Assembly (NCBI RefSeq): GCF_044704955.1
Contig: NC_091995.1
Span: 17,546,001-17,610,000, forward strand
Source: Pristiophorus japonicus
Taxonomy: Eukaryota
Length of the DNA stretch: 64,000 nt
Direction of reading: 5' to 3'
Below, one piece after another: positions 1,242-63,140 of this stretch. The notes under the pieces are model-generated. The model was not told the origin of the DNA, ran no database searches, and worked only from the letters and a program-made list of their open reading frames with translations. Both the position numbers and the translations under genes were made by a program. Every line of letters begins with the position of its first letter. The first letter of the stretch is position 1.

Positions 1242-1387
1242 TTACCTCCTCTGACGGAAGCAGATAGCGACGATGATTCCAAAAGCTGCAAGTAAAGCTA
1301 TCACTACTGCTCGAACACGCCAGAGAATCCAGACATCGGTGAAGATGCTTATAGTATCTTCGGTGCTCGTTTCCTTACGTTCGTCAC
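1242..1387 (-). CDS. NCR3: NKp30/NCR3-like receptor gene A, exon 3 (stalk + TM with Arg + short tail)
   Basis: Acceptor atttcatag, phase 1. Translates SDERKETSTEDTISIFTDVWILWRVRAVVIALLAAFGIIVAICFRQRR, followed by TAA (1244-1242). Alternatively it splices at AG|gtaatt (1246) to a possible exon starting at 702 that adds MQTH-stop. Confidence 0.8.
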
Positions 1388-1544
1388 CTATGAAATGTTA
1401 TAACAGACTTAAAAATTCTCCATATCTCTTTGTGGTCCAAGGCAACAAGTAACAAAATGGGGCTAAGACGCCCTCCGTTCTGAATGTTCGCCTTCGCCAT
1501 CCAGGATACTAACCTGGCAGGGTAGATAGCTCGCCCTTTAAATC

Positions 1545-3005
1545 GTAGAATCATAGCATTTTTTTACAGCACAGCAGGAGGACATTTCGGCCCATCGTGT
1601 CCGTGCCGGCTGACAAAAAGCTATCCAGCCTAATCTCAGCTCTACGCCCGTAGCCTTGTAGGTTATGGCACTTATAGCGCATATCCAGGTACAATGCTTT
1701 TAAAATGTAGTGAGGTTTCTGCCTCTACCACGCTTTCAGGCCGTGAATTCTAGATCCACACCACCCTCTGGTTGGTAAAAATTCTCCCTCAAATCCTCTC
1801 TAAACCTCCCAACAAATATATGTAGTCTGGTGGTTGACCACTCTGCTAAGGGAAAAAGGTCCTTCCTATCGACTCTATCTCGACCGCCCATAATGTTATA
1901 CACGTCAATAAGGTCTTGAGGTGTTTCAAAGAAAACAACCCCAGCATATGTAATATTTCCTCATAGCTAAAATTCTCCAGTCCTGCGAACAACTTCATAA
2001 ATCTCCTTTGTCCATCTCTAGTGCAATCACATCTTACCTGTAATGTGGTGACCAGAACTGCATGCACTGCTCTAGCTTTGGCTTAACTGGTGTTTTATAC
2101 AGTTGAAGCATAACCTCCTGCTCTTGTATTCTATGCCACGGCTAATAAAGATATATATTATGTATGCCTTCTTAACCACCTTATCTACCTGTCCTGCTAC
2201 CTTCAGGGATTTGTGGATGTGTGCTCCAAGATCCCTTTTTTCCTCTGCACTTCTCAGTGTCCCACCATTTATTGCGTATTCCCTTGCTTAGTTAGCCCTC
2301 CCTAAATGCATTACCTCACAATACTCCAGATTAAATTCCATTTGCCTACCTGCGTTTCATTCTATTAATTACCGCTCAGGTGGTAAAAGTGAATATCTGT
2401 CCCGTTTCCTTTGTTGCCACACGTCACTTTTCACAACAATAATCAAATATGAAGACTTGTTGCTCGGTGCCTTGCTTATTGTCCCAATCTCTGCAATTTC
2501 CCCATCCCTTCACTACTGGCCCCTATCTCTCATAAACACTACCCACATATCCGAGATAGATATAAACAGATGCGCTCGTACCCTGTTCAGATTAACGACG
2601 GACAAGGTAAAGGCAATTGCACAACTTCAGATCAATCATCTATTGTGGAAAAGATCCAATCTTATGTTTTCATGTGAAACGATTAAAGCATTGAGCTAGA
2701 TTATTGCGTCCAATTCTGGGCACACTTTAGAAAGTGCGTCAAATCCTTGAAGGGGTTGCAGAGGAGATTTACCAGAAAGGTACTAGGGATGAGGGTATTT
2801 CGGTCATCTGGAGTGACCAGAGGACACAGTTTTAAGGTAATTGGCAAAAAAGCAAGAGGTGTTGGCGGAGGCGGGGAGGTGGGTGGGGGGGGGGGGGAAT
2901 GCATTTTTGTGTTAAGCTCTCTGATACACTGCCTGAAAGGGCGATGGAGACAGATTCAACACCCAACTTTCAAAAGGGAATTGGATAAATACTTAAAAAG
3001 AAAGC
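1545..3005. mobile_element. CR1 3' fragments in gene A intron 2 (~1545-2345 minus, ~2700-3005 plus)
   Basis: Degenerate RT C-terminal peptides (QRRF, TRGHSFKV). Confidence 0.75.
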
Positions 3006-3132
3006 CTTGGGCTGTTTATAATAACCAGGTTAAGGCGTGGCTCAGCAATGTCACCAACAACGCGGTGAGGATTCGTAGGCTAACGCCGGCAAGAGTAGCT
3101 TTTAGGCTATAAATGTTAAATAACAAACTTAC

Positions 3133-3474
3133 TGCGTCTCACGGTCAGTGTTGAGCCGGTTCCGTATGTTTCACCAATTTCCATGAGCTTCACTTTGCAA
3201 AGATAGAACCCTGTATCTCCCGGTTTCAGCTGGATTATTCTAATGGACGCGTTTTTCCTCTGGCGGAAATCCTCCTTACTTGCCCCGAACACTCTGCCTC
3301 GGTATTCCGCTGTATTGTTGGAAACTTCATTTCCCTCTTTGGAGCCTCGGTGCCAACTGTAGCTGCCGATTCCATCGGTACCCTCATATGTGCAGACCAG
3401 ATCCGCTGTCTGTCCCTCGGTTTTGGTGAGCGATTGCGGCCTCTGAAATACTGTGATATTTCCAACAGTAACTG
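3133..3474 (-). CDS. NCR3: NKp30/NCR3-like receptor gene A, exon 2 (V-type Ig domain with joined J-like strand)
   Basis: Manual translation: (A)VTVGNITVFQRPQSLTKTEGQTADLVCTYEGTDGIGSYSWHRGSKEGNEVSNNTAEYRGRVFGASKEDFRQRKNASIRIIQLKPGDTGFYLCKVKLMEIGETYGTGSTLTVRR. Canonical C, W, DxGxYxC and GxG; the GxEVxNxTxEYRGR segment is NKp30-like. Acceptor tttacag, donor gtaagt, 342 nt, phase 1-1. Orthology to NCR3 is not proven. Confidence 0.88.
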
Positions 3475-4737
3475 CTGTAAATGGGCGAAGTAAATGGAAT
3501 ACAAAGTGGGTGAGGTCTTTGGCCTTTGAAAGTGTTGCTTCCTATATTACGCATGAAGGCTCATCGCGTTTGAATGAGTCTTTAACCCTTTACAAATTAC
3601 AAGTATTGTTTTGGTTGAGGGGTGAGGGCGTTCCGCTACTCTGCCAAATGGCAATTTTCAGGGAACATTGATCAAATATTTTTAGAAAAATATATTAACG
3701 CAGTGAATTTAACTGTATATAACCTGTGTTGTTAATTGATGCGATAAAGCCTGTGATGAGAAAATGTCCCTCAGCCCATCGAAGATCAACCCTTGTACGC
3801 TAACTCCCTCCACGGCATTTAATTGTATTCCGTGTATCTCCAATATTGACGTTTATTGCTTGCTGTAGGAATTCGTTTTCAGACAAACACGTTCTTCTTG
3901 ATTTTAGTTCAAAATGTCCCTTTTCATTATTTTCCATTGATCGATCCGAATCTACTTTCATAGCTGGGAAGCAATAATCGGCGTGCGATTTATCCTAACT
4001 TTTAACACGGATTTCTCCCCTCGCTCACTAACTACCTTATTTCAAGACTGCAACACTCATGCGTCGCTTATCTTTTCTCACGTCTCGTCTCTTTACACTT
4101 CGGAGAGGTTTTCTTGCTCGTCTATACACCCGTTGCAGTTCAGATATATTTTTGTGTCACAGTGAGAAGAGCTGAAGGTAGGATTGCAACAATAGTGAAC
4201 CGTGTATTTAGAAGTTTAGCAAGGTTATCTGACGCTATCAAGGCTCCATATGCGAACACTTAAAAAATATATTTCGTTACATCTTTATATATCGGCTATT
4301 AGTCATCTTACTATCACGTCAGAACATAGAACCAAGAGAATTCGGAATAAATAATATTAAGAAACCGTTCGTATCTATATTACTTGAAAATGTTGATTTA
4401 ATTCCTTGTAATTTGGGGGCATTGACTTGGGATAGGCTACAGGTTTGATTTCCGGCGGGGATTGCTGAACAATAATGGATCAGTGATGATTATGCGTATT
4501 TGTCTTTGCAATCGGCAAACTTCTCAATTTTATCAACCACTTCAAGTTTGGAAAGTCTGTACCATAGATTTTTTTTAACCTTTAACGTCCTATTTATTTA
4601 TCCATATGCCCATCACCAATATGTAAGTGTAGTTGAATTGGACAAAATATAACAACGCACTCCAAAAGTAGGTTGCAATATGATTTGTACTCGCATCTTG
4701 CAATTGGAAACCGACATAACATAAAATAGTTCCTTAC

Positions 4738-4789
4738 CGGCGATCATGGTCGTTATCCAGATTGATCCAATAACATTGTTAAGGTTCAT
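4738..4789 (-). CDS. NCR3: NKp30/NCR3-like receptor gene A, exon 1 (leader, MNLNNVIGSIWITTMIA)
   Basis: ATG in good context (gaaaccATG), 17 codons plus 1 nt, then donor G|gtaagg. Phase 1 matches the V exon acceptor. Confidence 0.75.
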
Positions 4790-8335: not shown

Positions 8336-8414
8336 CACTGCAGCAACTCGCCAAGGCTTCTTTGGCAGCACCTCACAAATGTGCGACTTCTCCCACATAG
8401 AAGGACAAGGACAG

Positions 8415-8775
8415 TGTTAGATCTCTTAATTTCCAATGAAATACGAACTCCGATGGTAGTTTTAACTTCTTTATTTTTAGCAGAGAGCAACAAGCTGCTG
8501 GCTGATTGCCAGTTCCTTTGTCTTACTGGGACCACATGGTCAAAATGGCTGTATTTATACCGGGTTCAATTTACAGAAAAGAACTCGCCTTCTTTGACCA
8601 TATTGGCTCAATTAATAGCCTTTTAACCTTTTAATTGGCTCGCTACCCAAGGTCCAAAAATGTCAAGTTGATTGATGAGTTAATGCAACATGCTGAGCAG
8701 CACGTAGTAGCTTTGACTTGGGGGTCTGTGAATTTTCAAAGCCTGTCTAAATGAGCCTGTTTGAATACTCTATCA
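8415..8775 (-). repeat. ERV 3' LTR (361 bp)
   Basis: Preceded on the minus strand by the polypurine tract AAAGGGAGGA (plus ~8777-8786). Same internal promoter and poly(A) motifs as the 5' LTR. Confidence 0.95.
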
Positions 8776-9050
8776 ATCCTCCCTTTGATTCTTTCACAAA
8801 CTGAATAATAAAACTTCAGGTATCACTGGTTAAACATTCTACAAAATAATTTCATACATGTTAATAGAGTTTCCTTCTAAAATTTGTTGATAAATTTCGC
8901 CATATGTCCAGACTAGTAGCTTCCACACAAATTTACACCAACCCGAGTTCCATCGTGGCCACAATGGAAGTCTGGTTTTAGTAGGTTAATTAACCTTATT
9001 CCAATTTAATCCAAATTAATATCTTAATTCAACCAGTAAACAACCTTTCC

Positions 9051-10392
9051 TTAAGCATAACATACCCCTGTGCCACGTACAGACGGTCTGCTGGGACCTG
9101 CAAGGTGTCTCACCTGCTGGACAGCAGCTACAGCCGCCTGGTCACAACAACATTTAATCAACATAAACAAACAATATAAAAGTAAAACAATTACAACAAA
9201 TAGAATTAAACCTTCCACCAATGAAGTTCATATTGAACCTAGCCATTCAGTGGTTCCACTCCACAAAGTGAATGATGGGGGTTGCTTAAGTTTTTCTACC
9301 TCCTTTTGGATATGCTCCGCTAAGTGGGTAATTTCTTCGGAGCTATCTGGGATATATGTGCAACACTCAGTTCCGAGTAGGGTGCAAGTACCTCCCTTTT
9401 CAGCCAGGATGTAATCAAGGGCCAGTCTATTCTGTACGGATTGCTACGATTTCTGCATTGATTTTAACTAGGGCCTCTGAGGTATCATTGGCTACTCGTT
9501 CCACAACGAATGCCATGTTAATGGATTCCCTTGCCAGTTTGGCGGTCCCATACACAGGGATCAGAATGGCAAACAACCTCTCTGTTTCTGTGATAGCTCT
9601 CTTAGGACGGTGTAAATGTTCCGACAGTGACTTTATATGATACGTATAAGGCACAATGTAGGCTAAATAGCAGGATTTCATCCAATTCTGGGGCAGCCAA
9701 AGGTAGGCCTTGTGGCCACACACCCAATAGGTGCCATTATATGCAATGAATGTTAGCTGTTTCTTTGTCAGCAACACTCCGGGGCCTGTCCAGGCTTTTC
9801 CATCTGTTTTATTCAGAATCCCCGTTACGTTAAAAATTCCCACATCGGCCCAGTTTGGATGGTTCCGTGGCTTGATTTTATTATAATTCCGGGAGCAGTT
9901 ACTATACCCCATATTTTGGCCTCCTTTGATGTTTCTAATCAGACAGACTGATTCCCCCGGTCTTCCTATTCCCGTTGTATTAGTGATAACAAAAAATGGG
10001 GGCTGTTTGGAATTATTGTAGCACGGTTGGTACCCCCCTTCAAAGGTAGTCAGATTGTAACCTGCTGACTTCCATTTACGTGCCCAGTTTTCCATATCCT
10101 GAAACGCATTGCCTGTTTTATTTTGATTAATTATCCACTCAGCCATTTCCGAGATATTCAAGGGAACTGGCCTCAAGGGAATCCCTCCCTTTGAGTGAAT
10201 AGGAATATGTGTACACACCCAACAACTAGAAATGTTACCTTGTTTGGCATAAATGTAGGACATATATAATAAGGTATTTACATGTAATTCCCTTGCTACA
10301 CTACTATTTCCCTTTGGTGCAGAAGGTCGGCTAGTATGAAGTAGGCCTATGCCTAGGATACCTACAATCAATAATACAGTAAATTTATACAT
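9051..10392 (-). pseudogene. env: ERV env: 321-aa open SU + fusion peptide, then frameshifted TM subunit
   Basis: Signal peptide, CWVC motif, furin site RPKR. After a frameshift at ~9430 come NRLALDYILAEKGGTC (ISD), CX6CC, an in-frame TGA and a hydrophobic anchor, ending at TAA 9053-9051. Confidence 0.9.
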
Positions 10393-10415
10393 TTTCGCAA
10401 AAAGTAATTGTCCTT

Positions 10416-13400
10416 TTAGATTTCAGCTTCACTTATGGGTGCTCGTTTAACATGTGAAGCGTGGATCCAGGCTTTCTTTCCTTGGACTTTAACAGCTGCC
10501 TTGGTGGGCAATAACACTTGATATGGTCCCTCCCATTTGGCACCCAAAGGTTCTTTATGCAACTTTTTCACATACACCCAGACTCCCGGGATGATGTCGT
10601 GTCCTCCTTCAGGTGGATTACCCCAAGCTGCCGATACCTATCGGGAAACAGAACTAATAGCATTGGTTAAGTTCTGACAGTATGATAACAAAGTGTTACT
10701 CATTAAGTGAACATCAGCTTTCCGTAAATCGATAGTTCCTGGCAGCGACATGGGTCTTCCTGTTATAATTTGAAATGGGCTTAGACCTGTAGTTCTGTTC
10801 GGGGTTGCCCTAATGCAGGTAGTGCCTGGGGCCATGGTGTTCCTTCTTGGTGATATTTGGCAAGCCGTTGTTTCAGAGTTCGATTCATTCGTTCTACTTG
10901 TCCTGCTGATTGTGGATGATAAGGACAATGTAAATCCCACGTAATGTTCAGTAACCTACAAACTTCTTGGCAGACAGCACCTGTGAAGTGTGTTCCCTGA
11001 TCTGAGTCAATGCTACTCGGGACTCCCCATCGGGGAATGTAATCCTTACACAAGACCTTTGCAGTGTGATTAGCTGTGGCTCTTTTAGTTGGGACAGCTT
11101 CTACCCATCTAGAGAATCTGTCGACCATGACAAGAATGTTAGTGTATCCTTGGAATGAAGGAAGAGATATATAATCAACCTGCAGATGCTGGAATGGTCC
11201 GACAGGGGCAGGGTGCCTCAGGTGGGGCATTACCGTGATGGGTCCAGAATTATTTTTCTGGCAGACCACACAGCGGTCTGTTACCAGCTGGGCATGTTTT
11301 TTAAATCCCCGACCCCACCAGCTTTTCTGGAATCGTGCCGTCATCTGTTGTGAGGCCAAGTGTCCCCACGAGTGGATCTGTTGGGCTAAAAAAGGCATAA
11401 GCACTTGTGGCGCGACTGGCTTGTCGGTAACTCTTTGTCTCCAGACACCATCTTCACATAGCTTAATTCCTGCTTCAATCCATGTCCATTTTTCCTCTCG
11501 GGAGCACTCGCATTGCATTGTTTGAAGGTCTTGTGTCAGAGTCCTGAGTGCTTTCAATCTGCACATCTGTGTTGGTTCTTCTGGAGGAACGCCCTGTGAG
11601 GCAGCATCTTTAGCTGCCTGGTCGGCTAGGGCATTTCCCTGTGCTTCTGTGGTATTTTCCTTGGTATGGGCCTTACACTTCAGGATGGACACTTCCTGAG
11701 GTAATTGTATGGCCTCCAGTAAGTCTCGGACTTCTTTTCCGTTTCCGATAGGTGTACCAGCAGCAGTGAGGAATCCTCTTTTCCGCCGTAACATACCAAA
11801 GTCGTGAGCGACTCCAAAAGCATAACGCGAATATGTGTAGACATTAGCTGTCTGTCCTTCTGCTATTCAACATGCTTCTGACAGGGCCTGTAACTCGGCC
11901 TGTTGTGCTGACGTTCCTGAGGGTAAACATCCTTTTGCCACTACCTCATATAAGGTTGTAATTGCCCATCCTGCTTTTCTGGTACCATTGTCAACAAAGG
12001 AGGAACCATCTGTAAACAGGATGAGGTCTGGGTTGTGCAGAGGCTCCTCTGCTGCTAAGGCTGCTTCTTCTGTTTCTTTTAAAATCTCCACGCAGTCATG
12101 CTCTTCACATTCTCCCCCCTCTTGCTCCCTCGATTCTGACATCGGAAGCATAGTTGCGGGATTAGCGGGGCTGGCCCGGACGATATGGAGATTAGGAGCT
12201 TCCAAAACTGCTGTCCAGCGGGTCCATCTTGCTGCCGTCACCTGAGATATTCTATTCATAGACAGCAAAGCGTATACAGTGTGGGGACACTTGACAATCA
12301 GCTTTTGGTCGAAGACTAGACCCGCAGTGATCATTCCATGGTCCTTAGGCAACTTTCCCATCCGAGGGCTACCGCATCCAGTTTTGCCGAATTATAGCCA
12401 ATAGGTCTTTGCCGATCCCCATGTTCTTGTGTCAGTATAGCTGTCATATATCCTTCTTTCTCATGGACAAACAGGGTGAATGGTTTACCACTGTCGGGGA
12501 TTCCCAGAGCCGGTGCCGAACACAAAGCCTTTTTCAAACTCAGGAAGGCCTCTTGCTGTTCTTTAGTGAGGGTGATGGCTTCTTTAGAGGCACGTTTCCC
12601 CTTTAAAATATCATTCAGTGGCTGAGCAAGCTGTGTGAAAGAGTCAATCCAATTTCTGTTAAAGTTACACAATTCCAAAAAAGACCTTAGTTCCTGAATA
12701 GTGGTGGGTTTTTCAGCAGCCCGAATGGTTGCAGTTCTATCCTGAGTAAGTTCTTTCTTTCCTTGTGAAATGTTTTCTCCCAGCTATACAACCTCTTCTT
12801 GGGATATTTGTGCTTTGTCGATGCTGGCTTTATGTCCTTTCAGCCGAAGGTGATCCAGCAAAGCTCGTAAATCATGTTCATGCTGTTCTTCCGTGTTTGA
12901 AGCTAGCAGGATATCGTCTACATATTGGATGACTGTGGACGACAGGGGAGGTAATTCTCGCAAATGGCTTTGTAAAGCCATGTGGAATACCGTAGGGCTG
13001 TTGTGGAAACCCTGCGGTAACCGGGTCCAAGTATACTGTTGTCCTTGGACCGTGAAAGCAAACCACTGTCGAACCTCCAGTGCCAGAGGCACCGACCAAA
13101 ATCCGTTGGCCATATCTATAACCGAGAAATATTTATGTTCCGGTTTGAGGGCATTAAAAATGGTGGAGGGATCTGCGACCAAAGGAGCTTTTTAATCAAT
13201 ACACTGGTTAGCTTTCCTATAATCGACAGTCAAACACCAAGTCTCATTAGATTTCTGTACCGGCCACACGGGGCTATTGGAGGAGCTATGCATTTTAATA
13301 AGCACCCCTTGTTTCTCCAATGGCTGAATAACCGGTAAGATTCCCGTGATGGCAGTTGGACTGATGGGATACTGTTTAGTGCATGGAGGCTTGGTCCCTG

Positions 13401-13860
13401 TAAATGACGCAGGCTCCGTCTGGAGTAGGCCACAATAGTTCTTATCTTTAGCCCATATTGGGCTTCAATTCTTCTGTTCCTTCAATTCTTCTTTCTTCAA
13501 AGTTCTAATTGACCATGTCACCCGACCATCCTCAAAATGCAATGATGAATCTACTTGGATTAGAACGTCCATTCCCAAAAGTGGTTGATCTACTGGGCCT
13601 ATCCAGACCGGCGTGGTTAGTTCATGTGGACCCAGCCCTATAAGTACCGGTGCTGTCCTTTTAATTTTATGGCCCCCAACTCCATAGGCTGTACGTGCCC
13701 TACCATCCAACGGCAAAAAAGTCTCCATATTGTAGGGGTAAGCATGTTAATTCCGCCCCTGTGTCTAAAAGACAGTCCACATCCTTCTCGCCCGTTATAT
13801 ATAGCCCATCTCCCCTTTGTTGTATTAGTGCGAGGAGGGGGGCCAGGGTGGGCTCTAATC
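10416..13860 (-). pseudogene. pol: ERV pro-pol (protease, RT, RNase H, integrase), disrupted by stops and frameshifts
   Basis: LLDTGA protease, LPQGF and YVDD in RT, FTDGSS in RNase H, HHCC plus DDE integrase (LQVDYI, SDQG, GQVERMN) and C-terminal GPY. Split over at least 7 ORFs. Confidence 0.95.
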
Positions 13861-13903
13861 GTTTTTTGCTATCCCGTAACTCCTTCTGTTGTTGTATTGT
13901 CAG

Positions 13904-15415
13904 TCACTTAAATGCTTCTATGAGGTCATTATCTTGTGACAAGCCTGGCTTGTTGGTTGAATTGTATCCCTGGCTGCGTCCTCTTCCCCAGCCACGACCT
14001 TTCTGTTTTGCCCTGCACGTCTTGGCCCAGTGACCTTCTTTCCCACAATAATGACATTTTCCAGGTAATTTTCCTAATAACTGTTTATCGGAATCCTGGG
14101 ATTTCCATCCCATAGCCTGTACAGCTCGGACTTTAGCTCCCATATCCCGATCTATTTGGTTACATCGATCCACCAATGCTGCAAAGGTAGTTCCGCTACC
14201 TTCCCAGTCCGGTAACACTACCTTAAGCATTTTGGACAGTTCTGGCTTTAGACCTGCCACGAAAGCTGCTTTTAGGGGTCCAAACACTAGTTCATCCATT
14301 TCCTCATCCGTATTGTTCATACCCGAATGTTCTAGCCACGTGCATCTAAACCGCTCGTCATACTCCAGGACCTCCTCTGTTCCTTTCTGTTGGCAGGCTG
14401 CAATTTTTCCCCAGTCTGTCTTAGCTGGACTGAAGGCTTGCAGCCAGTGTTTAATCGCCTCCCATCCTGCATCTACATCTTGCTCATCCTGCCCCAAAGC
14501 TTCTTCTACCTTGTCGTGCAATTTTCTTCCCTGTGTTTTTGGCACCATTATGGTCAAAATTTGCACTCCATCCCAGGGATGAAGTTGATATATATTTCTT
14601 AAGCGGTCCAATTGGTCCCACGTTTTTACTCCCCCTTTCTTTGGATTGGGCAATTCCTTGGACCATTTATCAATTTTCTCTGGGTCTGCCGGAGCATGAA
14701 CTAAGTATTCTTCGTACACCCTTCTCTTTGTTTTTTTGGTTCCGCCCTCATCCGCAGTCTCTTCTGATTTGACTACAACTCGTCTTTTTTTAAACAGGGC
14801 AAAGCGCACCCCTAATTCGTCATCCTCCGACACTGTATTGTCGGAGGATTCAGAATCCGTATCTATTCCTCGGTCGTGTCTTCGGGATTGCGCTTTTAAT
14901 TTATCTAAACATGCGTACCCTGGGAATTGATCAATACATTTTCCTTTTCCTATTACTGTCTCTTGACCTAATGATTTTTTCCATTCTTTAATTTCACCTT
15001 TAAGATCTTTAACTTCCGCTTCCAGCTTTTCAAGTTCAAGCTTTTTCTGTTGCAGCTGCGCACAAACTGCTTGCAATTGATCGTTTTTACTGGTCAGTTC
15101 TCGATCATGTTGGGAACGCATTATAATTTCATTCCGCTTTTGGATCTGGCCCATAACCTCTTGGGACCATCTAGTTTGCTCTTTATTTTTCATACGGGTC
15201 GTTTTTCCCCAGACCCTTTTAATCTCGTCCAAGGACCATTGTCCTTTGGAGGTTCCGTACTTTTGTTCGATCTTAATACAGGTTTTAGATAAGTTGAATT
15301 GTTGCTCTATGTATTCTTTCAACTGTTCGAGAATTAAATCTAGCGAAACTGCAGGTGGTGCCTGCCCACCTTTAACAGTTGTAGGCAATTCTTTGCTCTT
15401 ATCTCCTGCTGCCAT
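13904..15415 (-). CDS. gag: ERV Gag (503 aa open frame)
   Basis: Coiled-coil N-terminus, MHR-like CQQKGTEEVLEYDERF, CCHC zinc knuckle CHYCGKEGHWAKTC. Located directly after the PBS/leader. Confidence 0.88.
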   Translation of the reverse strand: MAAGDKSKELPTTVKGGQAPPAVSLDLILEQLKEYIEQQFNLSKTCIKIEQKYGTSKGQWSLDEIKRVWGKTTRMKNKEQTRWSQEVMGQIQKRNEIIMRSQHDRELTSKNDQLQAVCAQLQQKKLELEKLEAEVKDLKGEIKEWKKSLGQETVIGKGKCIDQFPGYACLDKLKAQSRRHDRGIDTDSESSDNTVSEDDELGVRFALFKKRRVVVKSEETADEGGTKKTKRRVYEEYLVHAPADPEKIDKWSKELPNPKKGGVKTWDQLDRLRNIYQLHPWDGVQILTIMVPKTQGRKLHDKVEEALGQDEQDVDAGWEAIKHWLQAFSPAKTDWGKIAACQQKGTEEVLEYDERFRCTWLEHSGMNNTDEEMDELVFGPLKAAFVAGLKPELSKMLKVVLPDWEGSGTTFAALVDRCNQIDRDMGAKVRAVQAMGWKSQDSDKQLLGKLPGKCHYCGKEGHWAKTCRAKQKGRGWGRGRSQGYNSTNKPGLSQDNDLIEAFK

Positions 15416-15675
15416 AATTTCTTTACTGGGGTCTCGAGTCGTAGGCTTTCTAGCCGATCAATAGGTCGGTGATAAATTAACTAACACACCGCCGAAGTTT
15501 AGACGTCTATGGGACCTCGAGCCGACTACCAACCGGAGGGTTTTCAAACCGGAGGCTTTCGGAATCGCGTAGAAGGAGAGGCGAATTTAGACTCTTGACC
15601 GAGGATTTTTAAAAAGAGGTGTCCTTACCTCAATATGTAGGTCCGATGTCCAAAATTCAATTTCTTTCCTCAGCG

Positions 15676-15693
15676 ATCCTGTTCGTGACACCA
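15676..15693 (-). promoter_or_regulatory. Primer binding site, tRNA-Ser(CGA)-like
   Basis: TGGTGTCACGAACAGGAT, 4 nt after the 5' LTR. Matches 17/18 to the complement of the vertebrate tRNA-Ser(CGA) 3' end ATCCTGTTCGTGACGCCA as recalled from memory. Confidence 0.75.
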
Positions 15694-15697
15694 AACT

Positions 15698-16044
15698 TGT
15701 TGGATCTCTTAATTTCCAATGAAATACGAACTCTGATGGTAGTTTTAACTTCTTTATTTTTGGCAGAGAGCAACAAGCTGCTGGCTGATTGCCAGTTCCT
15801 TTGTCTTACTGGAACCACATGGTCAAAATGGCTGTATTTATACCGGGTTCAATTTACAGAAAAGAACTCGCTTTCTTTGACCTTATTGGCTCAATTAATA
15901 GTCTTTTAACCTTTTAATTGGCTCGCTACCCAAGGTTCTAAAATGTCAAGTTGATTGATGAGTTAATGCAACATGCTGAGCAGCATCTAGTAGCTTTGAC
16001 TTGGGGGTCTGTGAATTTTCAAAGTCTGTTTGAATACTCTATCA
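15698..16044 (-). repeat. ERV 5' LTR (347 bp)
   Basis: Direct repeat of 8415-8775 with ~12 substitutions and one 14-bp indel by manual comparison. Minus-strand CCAAT boxes, TATAAATA and AATAAA are present. Confidence 0.95.
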
Positions 16045-28144: not shown

Positions 28145-28174
28145 GACAAAAGCATAGTGCAACCTCTACCTAAC

Positions 28175-45200: not shown

Positions 45201-48200
45201 TCTTTTTTTTACTGGGGGCATCCAAAAATCAGATTATTCATTCTACCAGTCGGACTTTATTACTGTGGGAGGTCAATGCTGTTTCTGATCTTTCAATGGT
45301 TTGCAGCCATGTTTTCTTCAACACCATGGATTTTATTGACATTTTGGAAAGATAAAATATGGCCCAAATCAATAATATCTTATGTTTAATGGGTCGCTAT
45401 CTGTGATAGTAAGATGCTGGGTACAATCTGTGATCAAGATACTATTTCGAGCACGAAGATTGAACAGCATTATGTTTTATTGATCTGTTGAATCATCATT
45501 GAAACTTTCAACAAACTCTTATGCTTAAGCACCGCGATGTACTTTGCCAGTGATATCGTTGCAATCACCCTGAAACAGGTTTGATGGGTGAGATAGTTTG
45601 CAGGAGTCATGCAAAGTAGCATGATATTTACACTTTAGTCTCGTGGCCCCGTTTACACTGAATTCCTCACTGCAGTCCCTTCCTTATGCAGGTCCTATAT
45701 TTCATGTTGTTTTCTTCTTCACTGTTGCATATGCTTTACATGTACTTTCATTCTGTTTATGTTCAAGTAATAACAACATATTATAAACTTTACCATAGAC
45801 CGAAATGAAGGAAAATGTGTTAAAAATGATCAACGAATCTATCAAAACTGAATAAACGACAGACGGCAGAGTTCTTACCAAACATTTGACATGAGTACAC
45901 AAGAGCTTGAAAGTTAACATAAGGTATAATTTTGCCTATACACTATAATAAGCCAAATTGAAATCTTATTTATAAAGAATCGTTTCGCTTTTAATTACAC
46001 ATAACGCTCCCCAGGTGTTATTTTTTCATCCAAACCCTTAAACCTTTCTATCAAATGTCTGTGCCACCTTCTTTAGGGAGGCATAGTATCTATATCTTAA
46101 ATTGGTTTAAAAACATCTCCGTTGAAAGGATATCATACCAAATGCTTTTAAGTGTTGGGACATAAGAACATAAGAAATAGGAGCAGGAGTAGACCATTTT
46201 GCCCCTCGAGCCTGCTCCACGATTTAATAAGATAAGCTCATCTGATATTGCATTCAGCTGCACTTTCCTGCCCGCTCCCCATATCCCTTCACTCCCTCAT
46301 CATTCAAAAATATGTCCATCTCCAACTTCAATATATTCAATGACCCAGCCTCCACAGCTACCTGGGGCAGAGAATTCCACAGATATACGACCCTATGAGA
46401 GAAGACATTCCTCCTCATCTCTGTTCTAAATGGGCAACATCTTACTCTTAAACTATGCACCCTAGTTCTAGATTCCCCCTTCAGTAACAATGTATAATTC
46501 CAAGGCTTATAACTGGAAATATAAGTATGGTTTACATTTTCTCTTTATTAATTCAAAGGAAAACATGCAGCCAAGTATTAATTCATAAAGCAGAGTACAT
46601 TATTAAGGAAGAAGGAGCAGGACGTTTGGAAAAGCATAATATAGTCAAGCAGAATCAGCATGGTTTTATGAAAGGGAAATCATGTTTGACAAATTTGCTG
46701 GAGCTCTTTGAGGATGTAACGGACATTGTGGATAAAGGGAAACCAGTGCATGTGGGGTATTTGGATTTTCAGAAGGCATTCGATAAGGTACCACATAAAA
46801 GGTTACTTCACAAGATAAAAGCTCACGAGCTTGGGGGTAATTTATTAGCATGGATAGCGGACTGATTAACTAACAGAAAACAGAGAAACGGGATAAGTGG
46901 GGCATTTTCCAGTTGGCAACCGGTAACTAGTGGGAACACAGGGTTCGAGGCTGGGCCTCAAATTTTACAGTCTATATTAATGACGTGAATGAATGAACCG
47001 AGTGTAATGTAGCCAAGTTCGTTGATGAAAAAAGTTGGGTGGAAAAGCAAGTTGCGCGGAGGACAAAACGAATCTACAAAGGGATATAGACAGGCTAAGT
47101 GAGTGGGCAAACATTTGACAGCTGTAATTAAATGTGGGAAATGTGAGGTTATCCACTTTGGCAGAAAATATAGAAACACAAAGTCTTATTTAAATGGAGA
47201 GAGATTACAACATGCTGCAGTAAGGAGGGACTTGGGATTATTGTGCATGAAACATAAAAAGTTACTATGCAGGTACAGCAAGTAATCAGGAAGACAAATT
47301 GAATGTTGGCCTTTATTGCAAGGAGGATGGAGTATAAAAACAGAAGTATTGCTGCAACTGTATAGGGTATTGGTGAGGCCACACCAAGAGCAATGCATAG
47401 TTTTGGTCTCCTTATTTAAGGATGGATATAATTGCATTGGAGGCAGTTCAAAGTAGGTTCACTAGGTTGATTCCTGAGATGAGGGGGTTGACGTATGAAG
47501 AAAGGTTGAGTAGGTTGGGCCTATACTCATTGGAATCTAGAAGAATGAGAGGCGTTCTTATTGAAACATATAATATACTGAGCGGGTAGATGCAGAGAGG
47601 ATATTTCCACTCGAAGGGGAATCTAGAACTAGGGGACATAGTTTAAGAATAGGGGGTTACCCATATAGAACTGAGATGAGGAAGAATTTCTTCTCTCAGA
47701 GGATCGTAAAAATGTGGAACACTCTGCCCCAGAGAGCAGTGGAGGCTGGCTCATTCAATATATGTAAGTTGGAAATAGACAGATTTTTGAATGATACGTG
47801 AGTCAAGGTTATGGGGAGTGGGCAGGGAAGTGGAACTGAGCCCAAGATCAGATCAGGCTTGATGTTATAGAATGGCAGAGCAGGATCGAGGTGCCGAATG
47901 GCCTATTTCTGCTCCTTCTTTGCTATGTTCCTATCTTCCTATTTTCCATCCGGAGTAGCACGTGAAATTTCCTGGCCATCCAATCACAGCACAAGTATTA
48001 TTGCCTTTGAGAAAGATAACAGAGGCAAAGAAGAAAGTTGCAGTGTGGGTTGAAATGGTGCATGGGCAGTGTTGCATGAGTTAAATGCTGTTAACTGCTG
48101 TTAAACGCTGCGCCCGCTATTCCACTCTAGTGACTTCAATGGAACAGAATATCGATGGTACAGTACCACGGTCAGCAAATGAGTTTCTGTCTTTTTGGCA

Positions 48201-54542: not shown

Positions 54543-54628
54543 CTATGCCCGAATTTCAGTAACTGTGAGGTTACCTACCACATCGTTAGAATCAATCCCA
54601 CGGACTGAGCCAACCATATATATAATAT
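54543..54628 (-). CDS. Gene B candidate last coding exon (DIIYMVGSVRGIDSNDVVGNLTVTEIRA-stop)
   Basis: Strong acceptor ttctctttgttttcag, phase 1, open to TAG at 54545-54543. An internal donor (G|gtaggt at 54579) could extend the gene further. Confidence 0.45.
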
Positions 54629-55093: not shown

Positions 55094-55255
55094 CACGTGG
55101 GTGGATATCGTCGTATGCCTCGTCATCACTGAACCACAAAGGGAGGAAGAAGCAAATGGTTACCTTTTTAAAGCATTCGGCGCAGGTCAGAGAAACATAA
55201 AGGCAGCAAAATGTCACAGAGAGACCTACGCACCATTGCAGGGGTAGAGAGACGT
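55094..55255 (-). CDS. Gene B cytoplasmic module 5: micro-exons 55255-55234 (22 nt) and 55128-55094 (35 nt), DVSLPLQCDDEAYDDIHPR
   Basis: ttttgtgtttccacag|...|gtgcgt and ccctttgtggttcag|...|gtaagg; phases 1-2 and 2-1. Confidence 0.75.
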
Positions 55256-55717
55256 CTGTGGAAACACAAAAGGAACAAACAGGAAAATCGTAACTCTGTT
55301 ATATCTGAAACAATATTTAGTACAGCTGCATTTTAAACCGCGTCTCAGTTGTGCTTATCATCTGTGTATAATAATTAATGCACGTTTATCTGCGGCCAGT
55401 GGGAGTGGGAAGGGTTATGTCGGCTCCCATACCATTATGGGAACCAGTCTAATTCAAACGCAAAATACAGGCTGAGCGCGCCCTTGCTCACTGTCTAGAA
55501 TGGCAAAGTTTAGGACCGTTCCAGTGAGCGTAGTTGAACTGAATATAATGAAGCATTAAACCGATCACGTGTAGCTGATCCAACAGATCAAAAGCGAAGT
55601 CATACTAATCAAAATAAATTACTCTTCAGAGATTATGGCTAAAGTATAGCATTAATATGGAGCACGGGCACTCAGCACTCTAGACGGGCGCTGTAATAGC
55701 GCTCCAACTAAGGTTGT

Positions 55718-55896
55718 TGCTGATATTTTAAACAATGGCCGGGCGGGAAACCCGCGAATCCGGGTGGGACACCGGTTTTACACCCCGATATTCCCTTCCA
55801 TTGACTTCAATGGTGAGTAAATCCCTGCGGGTGTACAACCGGTTTTGCACTCGATCTCATCAGTTTCCCGACGGCCGGTTAGGTTAAAGTTGCCCC
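55718..55896. repeat. Imperfect palindromic MITE-like element
   Basis: Centre CCATTGA-CT-TCAATGG (55798-55813); arms accggttttacaccc/gggtgtacaaccggt and ggccgggcgggaaac/gtttcccgacggcc. Confidence 0.5.
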
Positions 55897-55949
55897 GGGT
55901 CCAAGAACATAAGGGCAAGAATATTACTTCTGCAACAAGTGACAGTCGG

Positions 55950-57225
55950 CGTGCAGTTCTGGTCACCACATTATAGGAACATGTAATTGCATCAGTAAAG
56001 GTACCGGGGAGATTTACGAGGACGTTGTATTGACTGGAGAATTTTAGCTAAGAGGAAAGATTGGATAGGTTGGGATGGCTTGCATTGGAACCGATGGAGC
56101 ACAGAGGAGACCTAATTGAGATATATAAAATTATGAGGGCCGTAGATAGAGTGGGTAGGAAGAACCTGTTTCCCTTAGCAAAGTGATCAAATATCAGGGG
56201 GCACAGATTTAAAGTAATTGGGGGAATGTTTAGAGGGAACTTGATGAGAGTTTTTTCACCCAGAGGGTGGTGGGTGTCTGGAATACACTGGCTGAAAGGG
56301 TGGTAGAGGCAGAAACTCACATAGCATTTAAAAAGTACTTGGATATGCACTTGAAGTGCAATAACGTACAAAGCGACGATCAAGAGCTGGAAAATGGGAT
56401 TAGGCTGGATAGCTCTTTGTCGGCCGACACAGACACAATGGGCAGAAGGTCTCCTTCTGTGCTGTAAATGTCTATGATTCTGTGAGCCTAACTACCTCCT
56501 CATGACATTTAACGGCCTTACCATCGTCATCCTGGGGGAGGTGAGGGAGGGGTGGTGCGGGTGTGGGGGTGGGGGCGTGGGGGCGGGCACCAGTGACCAG
56601 ACACTTAACTGGACCAGCCACATAAATACTGTGGCTGCAAGCTCAGAGCAGAGGCTGGTATTCTGCAAAGAAAATCTCATTTCCTCACTCCCCAAACCTT
56701 TTCCATCATCTAAAAGACACAAGTCAGGAGTGTCATGGAATGAAGCTCCAGCACACGCAAGCAGCTTGACACCTTCCAGGACAAAGCAGCCCGTTGGATT
56801 GGCACTCCATCCGCCACCTTAAACATTCACTCCCTCCACCACTGGCCCACCGTGGCTGCAGTGTGTACCATCGACAAGATGCACTGCAGCAACTTGCCAA
56901 GGCTTCTACAGCAGCACCTAGCAAACCCGTGAACTCTACCACATAGAAGGACAAGGGCAGCAGGCGCAAGGGAACACCGTCAACTGCAAATTCCCCTCCA
57001 AGGCACACGCCATCCTCATTTGGAAATATATCGGCCATTCCTTCATCGGCGCTCGTTCAAAATCCTGGAACTCCCTCCCTAACAGCACCGTGACCAGAAG
57101 ACCTTCACCAGAAGGACTGCAGTGGTTCAGGAAGGTGGCTCACCACCACCTTCCCAAGGTTAATTAGGGATGGGCAGTAAATGCTAGCCTTGCCAGCAAC
57201 ACCCACATCTCAGGAACTAAAAAAA
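55950..57225 (+). mobile_element. CR1 3' fragment (~55950-56480) and a second LINE 3' end (~56590-57225) in a gene B intron
   Basis: The second fragment is an uninterrupted homologue of the sequence split by the solo LTR and the ERV (8336-8414 + 16045-16295). Confidence 0.7.
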
Positions 57226-57344
57226 ATAGCAAGCAGCAAGCTGCTGAGGTTGTTCCTGAGCAATTCACACAAGTATAATACTGAGGCCTCAGTGAAACTT
57301 GTCAATTTGAAAATTTAAGTGAATCTTTAATCGGCGGTGCTCAC

Positions 57345-57502
57345 CATCTACATTAGTTTCATCGTGAGGCAGCTCATTCCTTCGGAACAACAGACAAATA
57401 AGAGAAAATTAGTTACTAAACTAACTACAGAACAATTAGAATAAAAGTTGATGAAAAGTTTAACTCTGAGATTCACCGACCTTCCAAATTGTGGAGGAAC
57501 AT
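57345..57502 (-). CDS. Gene B cytoplasmic module 4: micro-exons 57502-57481 (22 nt) and 57379-57345 (35 nt), DVPPQFGRNELPHDETNVD
   Basis: ttttacctttgcag|...|gtcggt and tgttgttccgaag|...|gtgagc; phases 1-2 and 2-1. Confidence 0.7.
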
Positions 57503-58304
57503 CTGCAAAGGTAAAAGTTAACAATGAAAGATTTGCAGCTTTGATGCAACCTGTCTAAAGACACATTGACTACAGGAAACTGTTTCCCATGTCGGGCAGG
57601 TCAGTAGACAAAGGACACAGATTTAAAATAATTGGCAAAAAAACCAGAGGGGAGTTGAGGAGATTTTTTTATGCGGTGATATGGAAAGCACTACCTGAGA
57701 GAATGGGAAAAGCAGGTTCCCTTTCCGTCCCCCACCCAGATCTTCTCTCTCTACCATATTCTCTCCCTCAGCTCCTCGATGCTCCTGTCGCGATATTCCC
57801 TCCTCCCACCGCCCCCCCCGCCATGCTCCAAACCCGAACTTCTCCTCCACACTGGCCCCCCCCCACCCGATGCTCCTGGCTCGACTTTCTCTCCCTCGCC
57901 TCCTCGATGCTCCAGCCCCGTTGCTTCCCTCCCTCCTCCCCAATCCTCGTCTGGCCACTGATGACCCTCCCCCCTCCCCCGCCTTGCATGCAGCTGATCC
58001 TCCCCCATCCCCATCTCCCTGCAATGTAGTGCTACAACCTCTCCATCTGGCTGGCTGCGGGTAGGGAGTCAAAAGTTTGAAATGCAAATCAGGCCCTACC
58101 AGCAAGACCTGCGGGAAACCTGTTCCCCGGGTTTCTCAACCGCTTCCAAGCAACCGTCCTACCAACCAGCCTCCCGATTAAAATTCCTGCCATCGTATCA
58201 CGCAATCACTAGCCCCAATGATACCAGTTATTTCAGCATGTGTCACTGATCCAAACACAGGCCCCCGTTGGTACTCGTGACTCAGTAGTACGTGCATGTT
58301 TTGT

Positions 58305-58700
58305 TATCATTCTATCACGGGATGTGGGCATTGCTGGCGAGGGCTGTATTTATTGCCATCCAAATTGCCTTCGAGAAGATGGTAGTGAGCCGCCTTCTTG
58401 AACCACAGAGGACAATTAAGAATCAACGAACAGTGCGTGGGTCTGGAGTCACATGTAGGACAGACCAAGTAAGGAACACAGATTTCGTACCCTAAATGAC
58501 ATCTGTGAATCAGATGTTTTTTTTTAACAGCAATCCGGTTGATTCATGGTCAGCATTACTGAAACTAGCTTTTTAATTCCAGACTTATTTAATTAATGAC
58601 ATTTAAATTCCCCAGCTGCCATGGTGGGATTTTGAAAACTCATGTCCCCAGATCATTCGACCTCTGGATTACTAGTCCAGTAACATAAGCACGATGCTAC
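58305..58700 (-). mobile_element. tRNA-derived SINE (second family)
   Basis: Matches 737-1130 (gggtctggagtcaca..., ggattactagtccagtaacat). Confidence 0.6.
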
Positions 58701-58723
58701 CATGCTCCATATGCTTCACTCAC

Positions 58724-58886
58724 CAGCTGGATTAATTTCATCATAGGTCGAAAAAGTGCTCTCCATCCAGGATCTGAGAAAGAAGAAAAGAAAATCACAT
58801 AGCTATTGAAAAAAAAAATCCAGCTAATTAAAAAAAGATTCACCCTCTATGACCACCAACCAACCTTTGAGCTTGCGGACCTAACT
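58724..58886 (-). CDS. Gene B cytoplasmic module 3: micro-exons 58886-58865 (22 nt) and 58773-58724 (50 nt), ELGPQAQRSWMESTFSTYDEINPA
   Basis: ttttgttcccacag|...|gttggt and ttcttctttctcag|...|gtgagt; phases 1-2 and 2-1. Confidence 0.75.
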
Positions 58887-59110
58887 CTGTGGGAACAAAA
58901 GTCAAAAATTAAGGTTTATCCATGGATGCAAACAAAGCAATTGATTCTGTGAAATAAGATTCAAATTACATGTGCCTCTTATATGCATCCAGCAACAGTA
59001 ATCAGTTAACCTACTTAAGCCATTTACTAAAAATAATTGGTAATTAAAAAAATAATGCTTAAAAGACTTTTAAAATATTGACCAGTTAAATACATGTAAC
59101 TAATACTCAC

Positions 59111-59284
59111 CATTAAAATTAATATTATTGCAAGGCGCAATATTGCTTTGGGATTAAAGCAAAAAAGAAAAAAAGGTTTCAGTGGATTGAATATCAATAT
59201 GTATATCAAGTGAATAAAAGATCAAGAGAAGTGTAATCTTCACTTTGATATTCACTGACCATTGTAACCGTGCTGGTCCGCAGG
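59111..59284 (-). CDS. Gene B cytoplasmic module 2: micro-exons 59284-59260 (25 nt) and 59145-59111 (35 nt), PCGPARLQCNIAPCNNINFN
   Basis: ttttattcccgcag|...|gtcagt and polyT..cccaaag|...|gtgagt; phases 1-2 and 2-1; open frame. Confidence 0.68.
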
Positions 59285-59669
59285 CTGCGGGAATAAAAGG
59301 TGATATAGGAAGTGTTACAACTTTAGTATGGGTGTACGGTAGCATAATGGTTATAACAACGTAAGAAATAGGAGCAGGGTTAGGCCAACCGGCCCGTCGG
59401 GTCTGCTCTGCCATTCAACAAGATCATGGCTGATCTTCTATCTCAGATCCTCCTTCCCGCCCGATCTCCATATATTGTGATTCCCCATGAGTCCAAAAAT
59501 CTATCCCTCGCTATCTTGAATATACTCAACAACTGAGCATCCACAGCCCTCCGGGGTAGAGAACTCCAAAGATTCACAACCATCGGAGTGAGGAAATTTC
59601 TCCTCAACTCAGTCCTAAATGAGACTGTGATCCCTAGTTGTAGACTCACCAGGTTGTGAAAACTGTTAT

Positions 59670-60150
59670 GTTACTGGACATAAAGCAGAGGCCTGGAGCA
59701 ATGATCTACAAATATGAGCTCAAATCCCACCACGGCAGCTGCTGTGAAATTTAAATTCTGTTAATTTAAATAAATCTGGAATAAAAACTAGTATCAGCAA
59801 TGGTGACTATGAAACGATCGGATTTTAGTAAAAACTGGTCTGGTTCACTAATGTCCTTCAGGGAAGGAAACATAGAAACATAGAAACATAGAAAATAGGT
59901 GCAGGAGTAGGCCATTCGGCCCTTCTAGCCTGCACCGCCATTCAATGAGTTCATGGCTGAACATGCAACTTCAGTACCCCATTCCTGCTTTCTCACCATA
60001 CCCCTTGATTCCCCTTCACCTGGTCTGGCCTATACGTGACTCCAGACCCACAGCAATGTGGTTGACTCTTAATGGCTCTCTGAAATGGCCTAGCAAGCCA
60101 CCGCCAAGGTGACTCACCATCATCTCCTCGAAGGCAATTAGGGATGGGAA
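59670..60150 (+). mobile_element. tRNA-derived SINE (second family) interrupted by a short CR1 3' end (~59868-60013)
   Basis: Opposite-strand match to 737-1130, with a (AAACATAG)n tail inside. Confidence 0.55.
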
Positions 60151-60622
60151 ATGAATGAATAAAAAATAAATACACTTCTCTTATTGAAAGTCAAACATTA
60201 CAACCACAGTCCGGCCAAGATCAACTAATATTTTCAACGGAACGCTAACGGTATCGTTTATATAATAAATCGACTCAATTCCTAGCCACTTACAAATACC
60301 TAGTAGTAATTATAATTATTTAGTATAATCTCTGTACATAAAATGCAAACAGCTCACTGCAACTAGCGAATGTAAAAATAGTAATCTAAGAATTGCTGTT
60401 AATGATATTTACGGAGGGACCTAGCCGCATAATGGAATATGGAATTATTCGGATTATATTTTGAAAATGTGAATTGATTCATCCATTAACAAGGCGGGAA
60501 TGCTAAATATCACACCAACCCGCTTAAGGTTCATTTCCAAATGTAACCCAGATTATTTCCGAACTTTTTCATGCAAAACGTGTTTGTCGTGGAAAAGAGT
60601 GCAATTTGAATAAGTCACTTAC

Positions 60623-60775
60623 GAGCTAAAGGAATGTCATCATAAATTCGATCATTCATTCTAAATCACAAAGCAAAAGGGCACATTATCGAACAGTAGA
60701 AAAACATTTATACATAATTTTTCAATACAAAATTTGGGGGGAGATTTACTAACCTCCGAAATTGTAGGCGAACAA
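60623..60775 (-). CDS. Gene B cytoplasmic module 1: micro-exons 60775-60754 (22 nt) and 60660-60623 (38 nt), VVRLQFRRMNDRIYDDIPLA
   Basis: gatttctacag|...|gttagt and gtgatttag|...|gtaagt; phases 1-2 and 2-1; reading frame continuous from the TM exon. Confidence 0.75.
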
Positions 60776-60834
60776 CTGTAGAAATCAAAATTAATAATAA
60801 AAGTAACAATTTGAATATATACATCATTAAAATC

Positions 60835-61010: not shown

Positions 61011-61132
61011 TTAAAACAACATGAAAAGCTTTAGCGCAAACCAAATGTCACTGGCACTAACTTGCATTTGAATGAATTAATCTACTTTGTGGATATATCC
61101 GAAAGCGGAATATTGTTCTTTATAATATGTAC

Positions 61133-61249
61133 CTTTTGTCAGACCGTAACCCGCGGAGAACATGAGGAAAACGGCTAAAGCTCCAGAAATGGTATACATT
61201 GATGCGAAGCTGATGGACGACTCGTCGGATTTCTCTGCGATCGGTTTTG
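61133..61249 (-). CDS. Gene B stalk + TM exon (PKPIAEKSDESSISFASMYTISGALAVFLMFSAGYGLTK)
   Basis: Acceptor ttttgtcttctgcccag, donor G|gtacat, 117 nt, phase 1-1. Hydrophobic stretch with no charged residue in its core. Confidence 0.82.
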
Positions 61250-61599
61250 CTGGGCAGAAGACAAAATAAGAGATTAGTTTCACTCAGAACACCACTTGCT
61301 AACTCCCGCTATCCATTGCGGGGGAATGTATACTGTGCCCCAAAACCAACCATGTAATTTCAATGGCGATGAGAACTACAGATGCAGTCGTGCTGGTTTT
61401 ATCCATCTCCCCTACATTTGGTGATTGGGCTTGTGATATTAGTTATTTATCTTTTTTTATTTTAACGGCTTTTTTTTCTTCAAATTAATTAAAGTAAATT
61501 GTTATCGAAAATATATCATGACAAAACTTTTAACGAATATAATATCGTGATTGAATTAGCTGTTCTCAGTATTCTTTGCATTGTATGTGTCAGAGCGCA

Positions 61600-62297
61600 T
61601 GTATATGTGTTAATGTAGGCATGTGTGTGAGTGTGTGTATGTTTGTGTCTGTGTGTTTAGCCCTGTGTGTATCTGTATGTGTCTATGTGCGTGTGTTTGT
61701 GTCTGTATGCCTGTGTGTGTCTATATCTGTGTGTATACATCTGTGTGTGTTTGTGTGTGTTTGTCTATGTGTGTCTGTTTATGTGNNNNNNNNNNNNNNN
61801 NNNNNNNNNNNNNNNNNNNNNNNNNNNNNNNNNNNNNNNNNNNNNNNNNNNNNNNNNNNNNNNNNNNNNNNNNNNNNNNNNNNNNNNNNNNNNNNNNNNN
61901 NNNNNNNNNNNNNNNNNNNNNNNNNNNNNATTTATGTGTATCTGTGCATGCGTATATGTGTTTATGTGTATATGTGTGTGTGTGGATATGTGCGTGTGTA
62001 TGTGCGTGTGTATGTGCATGTGTATGTGCATGTGTTTGTGGATGTGTGTGTGTATAAATGTGTTTGTGTATGTGTGTATGTATACATGTATGAGTGTTTG
62101 TTTGTGTGTGTGTATGTGTATATGTGTGTGTATGTGTGTGTTTGTGTGTGTATCTGTGCGTGTGTAGATGTGTGTGTATGTGTGTTTGTGTGTGTGTGGG
62201 TATGTATGTGGGTGTGTATTTATGCGTGTATGTGTCTGATTATAGGGTGTTATTCTATGGCTGTGTATGTGTTTGTGTGTGTGTGTCTGCATGTGTG
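61600..62297. repeat. Degenerate (TG)n microsatellite spanning an assembly gap (N 61786-61929) in the gene B V-TM intron
   Basis: Seen directly; the overlapping CVCV/HTHT ORFs are artefacts. Confidence 0.95.
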
Positions 62298-62804
62298 AGT
62301 TTGTGCAAACTATCATAACTTTTTAATAAACGTTTTGGTGATAAAGTGGCGATAGTTATCAAACACAAAGGGATACATGCTTATAACCCATGCATTCGGA
62401 CATCGAAATGGATATAATAACAGAAAATGCTGGATTTACTCAGCAGATCAGGCGGCATCTGTCGAGAGAGAAACAAAGTTATCGTTTCAGGTCGATGCCT
62501 TTTCCTCAGTATTGGGAAAAAAATTAGAGATGTAACAGATTATAAGTAGGTGCGGTGGGCATTAATCTGGGGACGGAGGAAAGAAGAAAAGGGAAGGCCT
62601 GTGATAGGCAGGGTTGATTATATGACAGAAGGTATGATAGGACAACGTAAAAGTCATAGAAATAGAATGTTATCCTCATTTTCACTAGGTTGACATATGT
62701 TCTGTACGTGTAAGACCCTGCAAGTTGAGTCTGCTGTGATATAATAACGGATCGACCGACCCAGGGGTTATGGTGGAACAGTTTGTAATAAACAGTCAAC
62801 TCAC

Positions 62805-63140
62805 GCACTACATTTAGCGTTGTTCCTTGTCCGTACGTTTCGGCCACTTCCATTAGTTCCACTTTGCAGTAGTAGTTTCCTGAATCATACTGTCTCACGT
62901 CTTTGATAGTAATGGAAGCGTCCCTCCTTTGCGTGAAATCCTCGGCACTTGCCCGCGATAGACGCCCGCTGAATTCCGTGGTTTTGTCGCTGACTTCAGG
63001 TCCACCTTTAAAGTTTTTGTGCCAATTGAAATTACCGACCCCCGGAGGCCCTTCATGCGTGCAGTTCAGGAGCACCGACTGCCCCTCCGTGGCGTTAATG
63101 GACGGGATTTGAATTACTTTGATGTTGGCTGCAGCAATTC
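62805..63140 (-). CDS. NCR3: NKp30/NCR3-like receptor gene B, V-type Ig domain exon
   Basis: Lies within ORF 62524..63171: IAAANIKVIQIPSINATEGQSVLLNCTHEG...W...GPEVSDKTTEFSGRL...DSGNYYCKVELMEVAETYGQGTTLNVV. Acceptor ctattgacag, donor gtgagt, 336 nt, phase 1-1. About half of residues are identical to the gene A V domain by eye. The leader exon was not found and is probably beyond 64000. Confidence 0.9.

Follow-up and report, generated by a model that had tools for sequence, protein, structure and literature searches.

Two NCR3-like receptor genes in a sawshark window

We analyzed a 64,000-nt stretch of the genome of the sawshark Pristiophorus japonicus (hereafter the window; contig C19, G000:C19:17546001-17610000, with window positions counted from 1), which carries two NKp30/NCR3-like receptor genes, A and B. 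As judged from sequence, the close partners of gene A are not gene B but a set of genes elsewhere in the same cluster whose last exon encodes two ITIMs (immunoreceptor tyrosine-based inhibition motifs), so that partners with similar predicted ectodomains have opposite signaling ends. The original prediction for this stretch described two paralogous V exons on one strand, about 59 kb apart and about 50% identical, and our analysis confirmed this arrangement: both V exons lie on the minus strand, 59.3 kb apart, and 56 of 111 residues are identical (51% at the protein level, 63% at the DNA level). The exons of the two genes are listed below.

Gene A
4738..4789, minus strand: leader exon, 52 nt, phase 1; 9 of 17 residues in common with the leader of bamboo shark P0019; a second copy lies upstream of gene A2
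3133..3474, minus strand: V exon, unsplit, VJ-type; Pfam V-set domain; sequence and fold matches to NKp30
1242..1387, minus strand: stalk and transmembrane (TM) exon with outer Arg; a possible donor after position 1246 overlaps the stop codon (1242-1244)

Gene B
62805..63140, minus strand: V exon, VJ-type; the leader lies outside the window, at G000:C19:17611574-17611616
61133..61249, minus strand: stalk and uncharged TM exon
60623..60775, minus strand: tail exon pair 1, 22 nt + 38 nt; IYDDI; horn shark P0003
59111..59284, minus strand: tail exon pair 2, 25 nt + 35 nt; no Tyr
58724..58886, minus strand: tail exon pair 3, 22 nt + 50 nt; STYDEI
57345..57502, minus strand: tail exon pair 4, 22 nt + 35 nt; His, against Tyr in horn shark
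55094..55255, minus strand: tail exon pair 5, 22 nt + 35 nt; AYDDI
54579..54628, minus strand: single tail exon, 50 nt; one Tyr, no consensus
45702..45752, minus strand: likely last coding exon, KAYATV and then a stop; weak acceptor; horn shark isoform X4 (P0007) has a matching end

Both V exons encode a Pfam V-set domain and are of the unsplit, non-rearranging VJ type, each starting at strand A, including GxGT and ending at a phase-1 donor, and neither of two whole-genome V searches placed a further V exon between them. The original prediction assigned both genes to the NKp30/NCR3 family, and the V domains agree with this assignment. Human NKp30 is the best sequence match with a solved structure for A (E 1e-11) and for B (2e-12), and with the model of the gene A V domain, the only one folded (predicted local distance difference test score, pLDDT, 94), NKp30 takes ranks 1-4 in Foldseek (TM-score 0.83-0.87) and first place in VIA-align (Z 16.6, root-mean-square deviation 2.0, 107 aligned; next Z 14.5). 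Two proteins listed under P. japonicus match exons of contig C19 at 94-99%.

V-exon-limited similarity between gene A and two-ITIM genes

Fourteen V loci resemble that of gene A at 59% or more, and we found seven copies of a two-ITIM last exon (LQYAxL, VLYxxx) behind V exons of the gene A clade. These ITIM genes lie 100-450 kb from gene A, most of them on its strand, and their V domains are 72-84% identical to that of gene A at the protein level. For example, the ITIM gene at G000:C19:17650853-17663934 is open from leader to stop, with a V domain 84% identical to that of gene A and a different leader and TM segment. When 5 kb around gene A were compared with ITIM genes, the V exon (3135-3489) aligned at 81-88% DNA identity in all five tested, and in none of the five was there an alignment in the leader, the TM exon or the DNA flanking V; outside V we saw 0-3 short off-position matches at 69-81%, which we took for repeats. 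Among themselves, the ITIM genes share introns at about 75-85%. Silent divergence in V is 0.20-0.37 between gene A and four ITIM genes, no greater than the 0.30-0.52 among those four. Since silent sites this close leave too little time for neutral drift to have erased the introns, the V exon would have moved between gene bodies, and the V-only resemblance points to gene conversion.

Phylogenetic analysis placed the Arg-type and ITIM-type V domains of the sawshark, mixed, in one tree group (support 93/96), and a bamboo shark gene with an A-type leader groups with the ITIM gene of that species (91/88) and not with gene A. A second sawshark pair, consisting of a Lys-TM gene (C19:15943640) and a gene with a Tyr-motif tail (15969269), both within G000:C19:15943300-15975589, has as its only common block 1.69 kb around V, at 95.6% identity. 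ITIM-tailed relatives are also present in RefSeq, under automatic names.

The NCR3-like cluster and family membership

The two whole-genome V searches returned 45 and 44 matches, every one on contig C19, and these merged into 43 NCR3-like V loci that form two blocks, one at 15.67-16.28 Mb and one at 17.24-18.00 Mb. This confirmed the proposal of an expanded NKp30 family in a cartilaginous fish and answers the accompanying suggestion to look for paralogs in the flanking DNA. Among the receptor ends in the cluster are those with a TM Arg, a TM Lys, two ITIMs or YD[DE]I motifs; about 0.6 Mb of DNA around the V loci was fetched, and counts of tail exons are lower bounds. Pseudogenes are many, and domain orders are mixed. 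At G000:C19:16181899, 16231894 and 16282177, with 50-kb spacing, we observed three almost identical V-TM units, which either were triplicated very recently or were duplicated in the assembly.

As to the suggested check for linkage to the major histocompatibility complex (MHC), 22 of the 41 matches to MHC class I lie on contig C19, 22-40 Mb away from the V cluster, and a search for class II found nothing. Nine near-identical class I matches at G000:C3:316.6-319.3 Mb each span the entire peptide-binding region without the usual intron, in a single open frame 419-777 aa long.

Family membership was also examined in trees, which did not include CD28/CTLA4 or named NITR sequences and of which one (108 rows) was built by a quick method. 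The gene A V domain groups with nurse shark NCR3 at 99/97, being 68% identical to P0013, and that of gene B joins the shark NCR3 group at 95 in one tree and at 92/87 in another, and is unplaced in a third. The V domains of A and B fall into separate, old clades that predate the species split, and both clades include sequences from other sharks. We rejected membership of A and B in the SIRP family, as SIRP rows form their own group in two trees and SIRP ranks below NKp30 by both sequence and fold. Neither V domain falls with SIRP or with T-cell receptor (TCR) V sequences.

Gene A: an Arg-type receptor with two possible 3′ ends

The leader, V and TM exons of gene A (the last from 1387) join in one open frame with intact splice sites. 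An Arg at the outer face of the TM segment was part of the original prediction, and we find that its outer end carries two, about as deep as the Arg in donkey and meerkat NCR3 and in two shark Arg-type proteins. The best 19-residue hydrophobic window begins one residue before the second Arg, which places both at its edge. There are two copies of the Arg-TM exon in the genome, both intact, one in gene A and one in gene A2 (C19:17727), and the two genes share introns at 82%. Gene A2 (G000:C19:17727186-17742203) has an A-type leader, four tandem V exons, one of them with a stop, and this second Arg-TM exon. A CD3zeta/FcRgamma-family TM exon with a TM Asp is present elsewhere in the genome (G000:C11).

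The tail of gene A had been described as at most about 8 aa long and free of Tyr. The read-through form stops after RQRR and is followed by AATAAA at +236 nt (+227 in A2). The absence of Tyr is not secure, as the stop codon overlaps a plausible donor (AG/GTAATT), and a candidate acceptor at G000:C19:17537352, 8.6 kb past the window edge, is found also behind A2 and nowhere else; a candidate exon from this point would lengthen the tail by 35 residues, among them a single Tyr within a YxN motif. Because YxNx is listed as a GRB2-type motif of activating receptors (PMC5112662), this exon would not make gene A an inhibitor. The candidate exon is about 85% conserved in A2, as are its flanks, which gives no discrimination, and silent changes make up 5 of the 14 changed codons between A and A2 in the phase-2 frame and 1 of the 7 in the phase-0 frame, numbers too small for a decision. 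The phase-0 frame contains an ITIM-like LRYKDL, and we found no conserved exon that would shift the candidate exon into this frame. No two-ITIM exon was present in the DNA fetched behind A or A2. A word-index protein search with the gene A V domain among proteins of near length, a weak search, gave no match.

Gene B: a tyrosine tail built from mini-exon pairs

The tail of gene B is encoded by 12 small exons (five pairs of 22-25 nt + 35-50 nt, a 50-nt exon and the last exon) that give 135 residues with five Tyr, and the 3′ end lies lower than in the first reading. Together with the TM exon, this upholds the description of an uncharged TM core followed by a multi-Tyr tail of over 100 aa. The five Tyr stand in the contexts RIYDDI, STYDEI, EAYDDI, IIYMVG and KAYATV. 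In a looser ITIM consensus that allows Ile at +3, one of the five fits (STYDEI). None of the five fits the ITIM consensus, or that of the ITSM (immunoreceptor tyrosine-based switch motif), as printed in PMC5112662. A threefold YD[DE][IV] was reached in 0 of 100,000 shuffles of the tail, a result that exon repetition explains in part, and horn shark retains both IYDDI and SxYDEI. Since the pYDDV of ADAP is a binding site for SLP-76 and Nck (PMC2908683), we prefer adaptor docking for this tail, which likely recruits adaptor proteins rather than serving as a brake.

The ITIM genes contain one 22-nt + 35-nt mini-exon pair (G000:C19:17655976-17656137), and gene B contains five such pairs (window 55094-60775), which suggests that the tail of gene B grew by repetition of a module seen singly in the ITIM genes. 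The horn shark ortholog of gene B also has TM-less isoforms, and of its annotated short isoforms (P0002, P0004, P0005 and P0010), P0002 skips the TM exon.

Other elements between the two genes

A provirus-like long terminal repeat (LTR) element lies between genes A and B at window 8415-15997 on the minus strand, with 300-nt terminal direct repeats that are 96% identical and with reverse transcriptase, RNase H and integrase matches in separate frames interrupted by stops. A long interspersed nuclear element (LINE) at 24200-30300, also on the minus strand, is GC-rich (57-64%) and carries ORF1-like, endonuclease and reverse transcriptase frames, likewise interrupted by stops.

Proposed explanation and alternatives

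We consider it probable, at about two chances in three, that gene A is an activating receptor whose V exon has been homogenized by conversion with nearby two-ITIM genes, and that gene B is an older, separate subtype with a YD[DE]I tail docking SH2 adaptors. Gene A would signal through its TM Arg paired with a CD3zeta/FcRgamma-family adaptor, the ITIM genes would recruit SHP-type phosphatases, and exon exchange would keep the ectodomains of both matched to the same ligands. Gene B may be a costimulatory or modulatory receptor that acts via SLP-76/Nck-type SH2 domains. The claim of predicted activating and inhibitory ends in one cluster, with gene A as the Arg-type member, is retained.

Several observations weigh against this explanation. 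All gene models are predictions; only one of the seven ITIM genes is assembled whole, two having broken V exons and others damaged mini-exons, and the bamboo shark A-type model lacks a TM exon, its activating type being read from the leader. Any V exchange is not recent, given silent-site divergence of 0.2-0.4, and pairwise dN/dS (nonsynonymous to synonymous rates) is 0.16-0.78 in 28 of 28 pairs, with no sign of overall positive selection. No database homolog of the gene A TM exon was found by the word-index protein search, which is weak. Deep forks are unresolved in two trees, and shark and mammalian NCR3 do not form one resolved clade. Of the 11 residues through which human NKp30 contacts B7-H6 (PMC3135353, Table II), gene A keeps four and gene B three, at positions that vary among paralogs. 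B2, the closest paralog of gene B, has lost IYDDI and SxYDEI and gained other motifs, and SxYDEI of gene B itself, kept in horn shark, fits the loose ITIM consensus, with a YxxV in the last exon.

The silent divergence and the dN/dS values also speak for a rival history, in which gene A acquired its V exon once, by exon shuffling or duplication rather than through repeated conversion, and in which genes of the cluster are gained and lost by ordinary birth and death, with no functional pairing. The many pseudogenes and mixed domain orders fit such a history. However, the mismatch between chassis and V recurs in bamboo shark and in the second, unrelated sawshark pair, and we regard a single event as unlikely.

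The original prediction paired gene A with gene B itself, and in this arrangement gene B would act as the brake via SxYDEI and its final YxxV. The two genes are adjacent on one strand, and not only is SxYDEI conserved in horn shark, but isoform X4 there ends in a YSTV motif. The V identity of A and B is 51%, however, against 72-84% for the ITIM genes; their separate V clades predate the species split; they differ at 6 of the 11 B7-H6 contact positions known from human NKp30; and gene B is without a strict ITIM or ITSM. We therefore do not retain A and B as an activating/inhibitory pair, which we judge improbable, a little more so than the single event. That gene A is not a working activating receptor, being unexpressed or having its Arg residues outside the membrane, is very improbable: both Arg are at the edge of the hydrophobic window and the provirus lies 3.6 kb upstream of the leader, but the frame is open, the splice sites and a second TM-exon copy are intact, and Arg lies at similar depth in the donkey, meerkat and two shark proteins.

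Extending the preferred explanation of conversion between gene A and the ITIM genes, shark NKp30 might form a full KIR-like system, that is, an MHC-linked cluster of Arg-, Lys-, ITIM- and YD[DE]I-type receptors in which, lineage by lineage, activating and inhibitory genes copy ectodomain exons from one another again and again, tracking pathogen or self ligands, with gene B an ancient costimulatory NKp30 wired directly to SLP-76/Nck and mammalian NKp30 the lone survivor. We offer this wider scenario tentatively and hold it to be doubtful as a whole. The Arg-type gene and the intact two-ITIM gene, with V domains 84% identical, are candidates for both halves of natural killer (NK)-type recognition in cartilaginous fish.

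Comparison with known systems

By sequence, human NKp30 is the best match of both sawshark V domains, and by fold that of gene A, but it is encoded by a single gene without an ITIM paralog, and the sawshark proteins keep only 3-4 of its 11 B7-H6 contacts. The TM charge of human NKp30 pairs with CD3zeta (PMC12272517), and its tail isoforms arise from splicing after the TM segment (PMC6514059).

Expansion of NCR3 in sharks is already published, with eight nurse shark genes (MT914154-914161, cited in PMC12227049), and what we add is mechanism and detail. Nurse shark NCR3 (QTT61898.1, P0013; QTT61904.1, P0047) likewise has an unsplit VJ exon, is multigenic and lies on an MHC-bearing chromosome; for the sawshark we map 43 V loci, with ends of the Arg, Lys, two-ITIM and YD[DE]I types among them, and see V-exon-limited exchange. 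A literature search, in which most papers were judged by their listing and which did not cover the primary shark NCR3 papers, turned up none that deals with ITIM/Arg pairing or with conversion among shark NCR3 genes.

The horn shark proteins XP_067865360-69 (P0003, P0007) are an ortholog-like partner of gene B, with 68% V identity and the same exon chain in RefSeq isoforms, but the third YDDI is absent in horn shark, where the annotation is automatic. CD6 carries a YDDI site, an acidic Tyr motif like those of gene B. The pYDDV sites of ADAP (PMC2908683) and the tail of gene B likewise repeat an acidic YD[DE][IV], but gene B is a predicted single-V receptor with a tail made from repeated 22-nt + 35-50-nt exon pairs.

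Siglec-11 and Siglec-16 are reportedly paired receptors kept matched by gene conversion. The same has been described for Xenopus Ceacam301/303 and human CEACAM1/3 (PMC5112662). In the CEACAM pairs, as in our genes, similarity does not reach past the ligand-binding exon with its splice sites, and the signaling ends are opposite, but there conversion is recent, with few silent changes, and the genes lie on opposite strands, whereas the sawshark genes show silent divergence (dS) of 0.2-0.4 and lie mostly on one strand. Ectodomain matching by gene conversion, as described for CEACAM and reportedly Siglec pairs, is thus suggested for the NKp30 family too.

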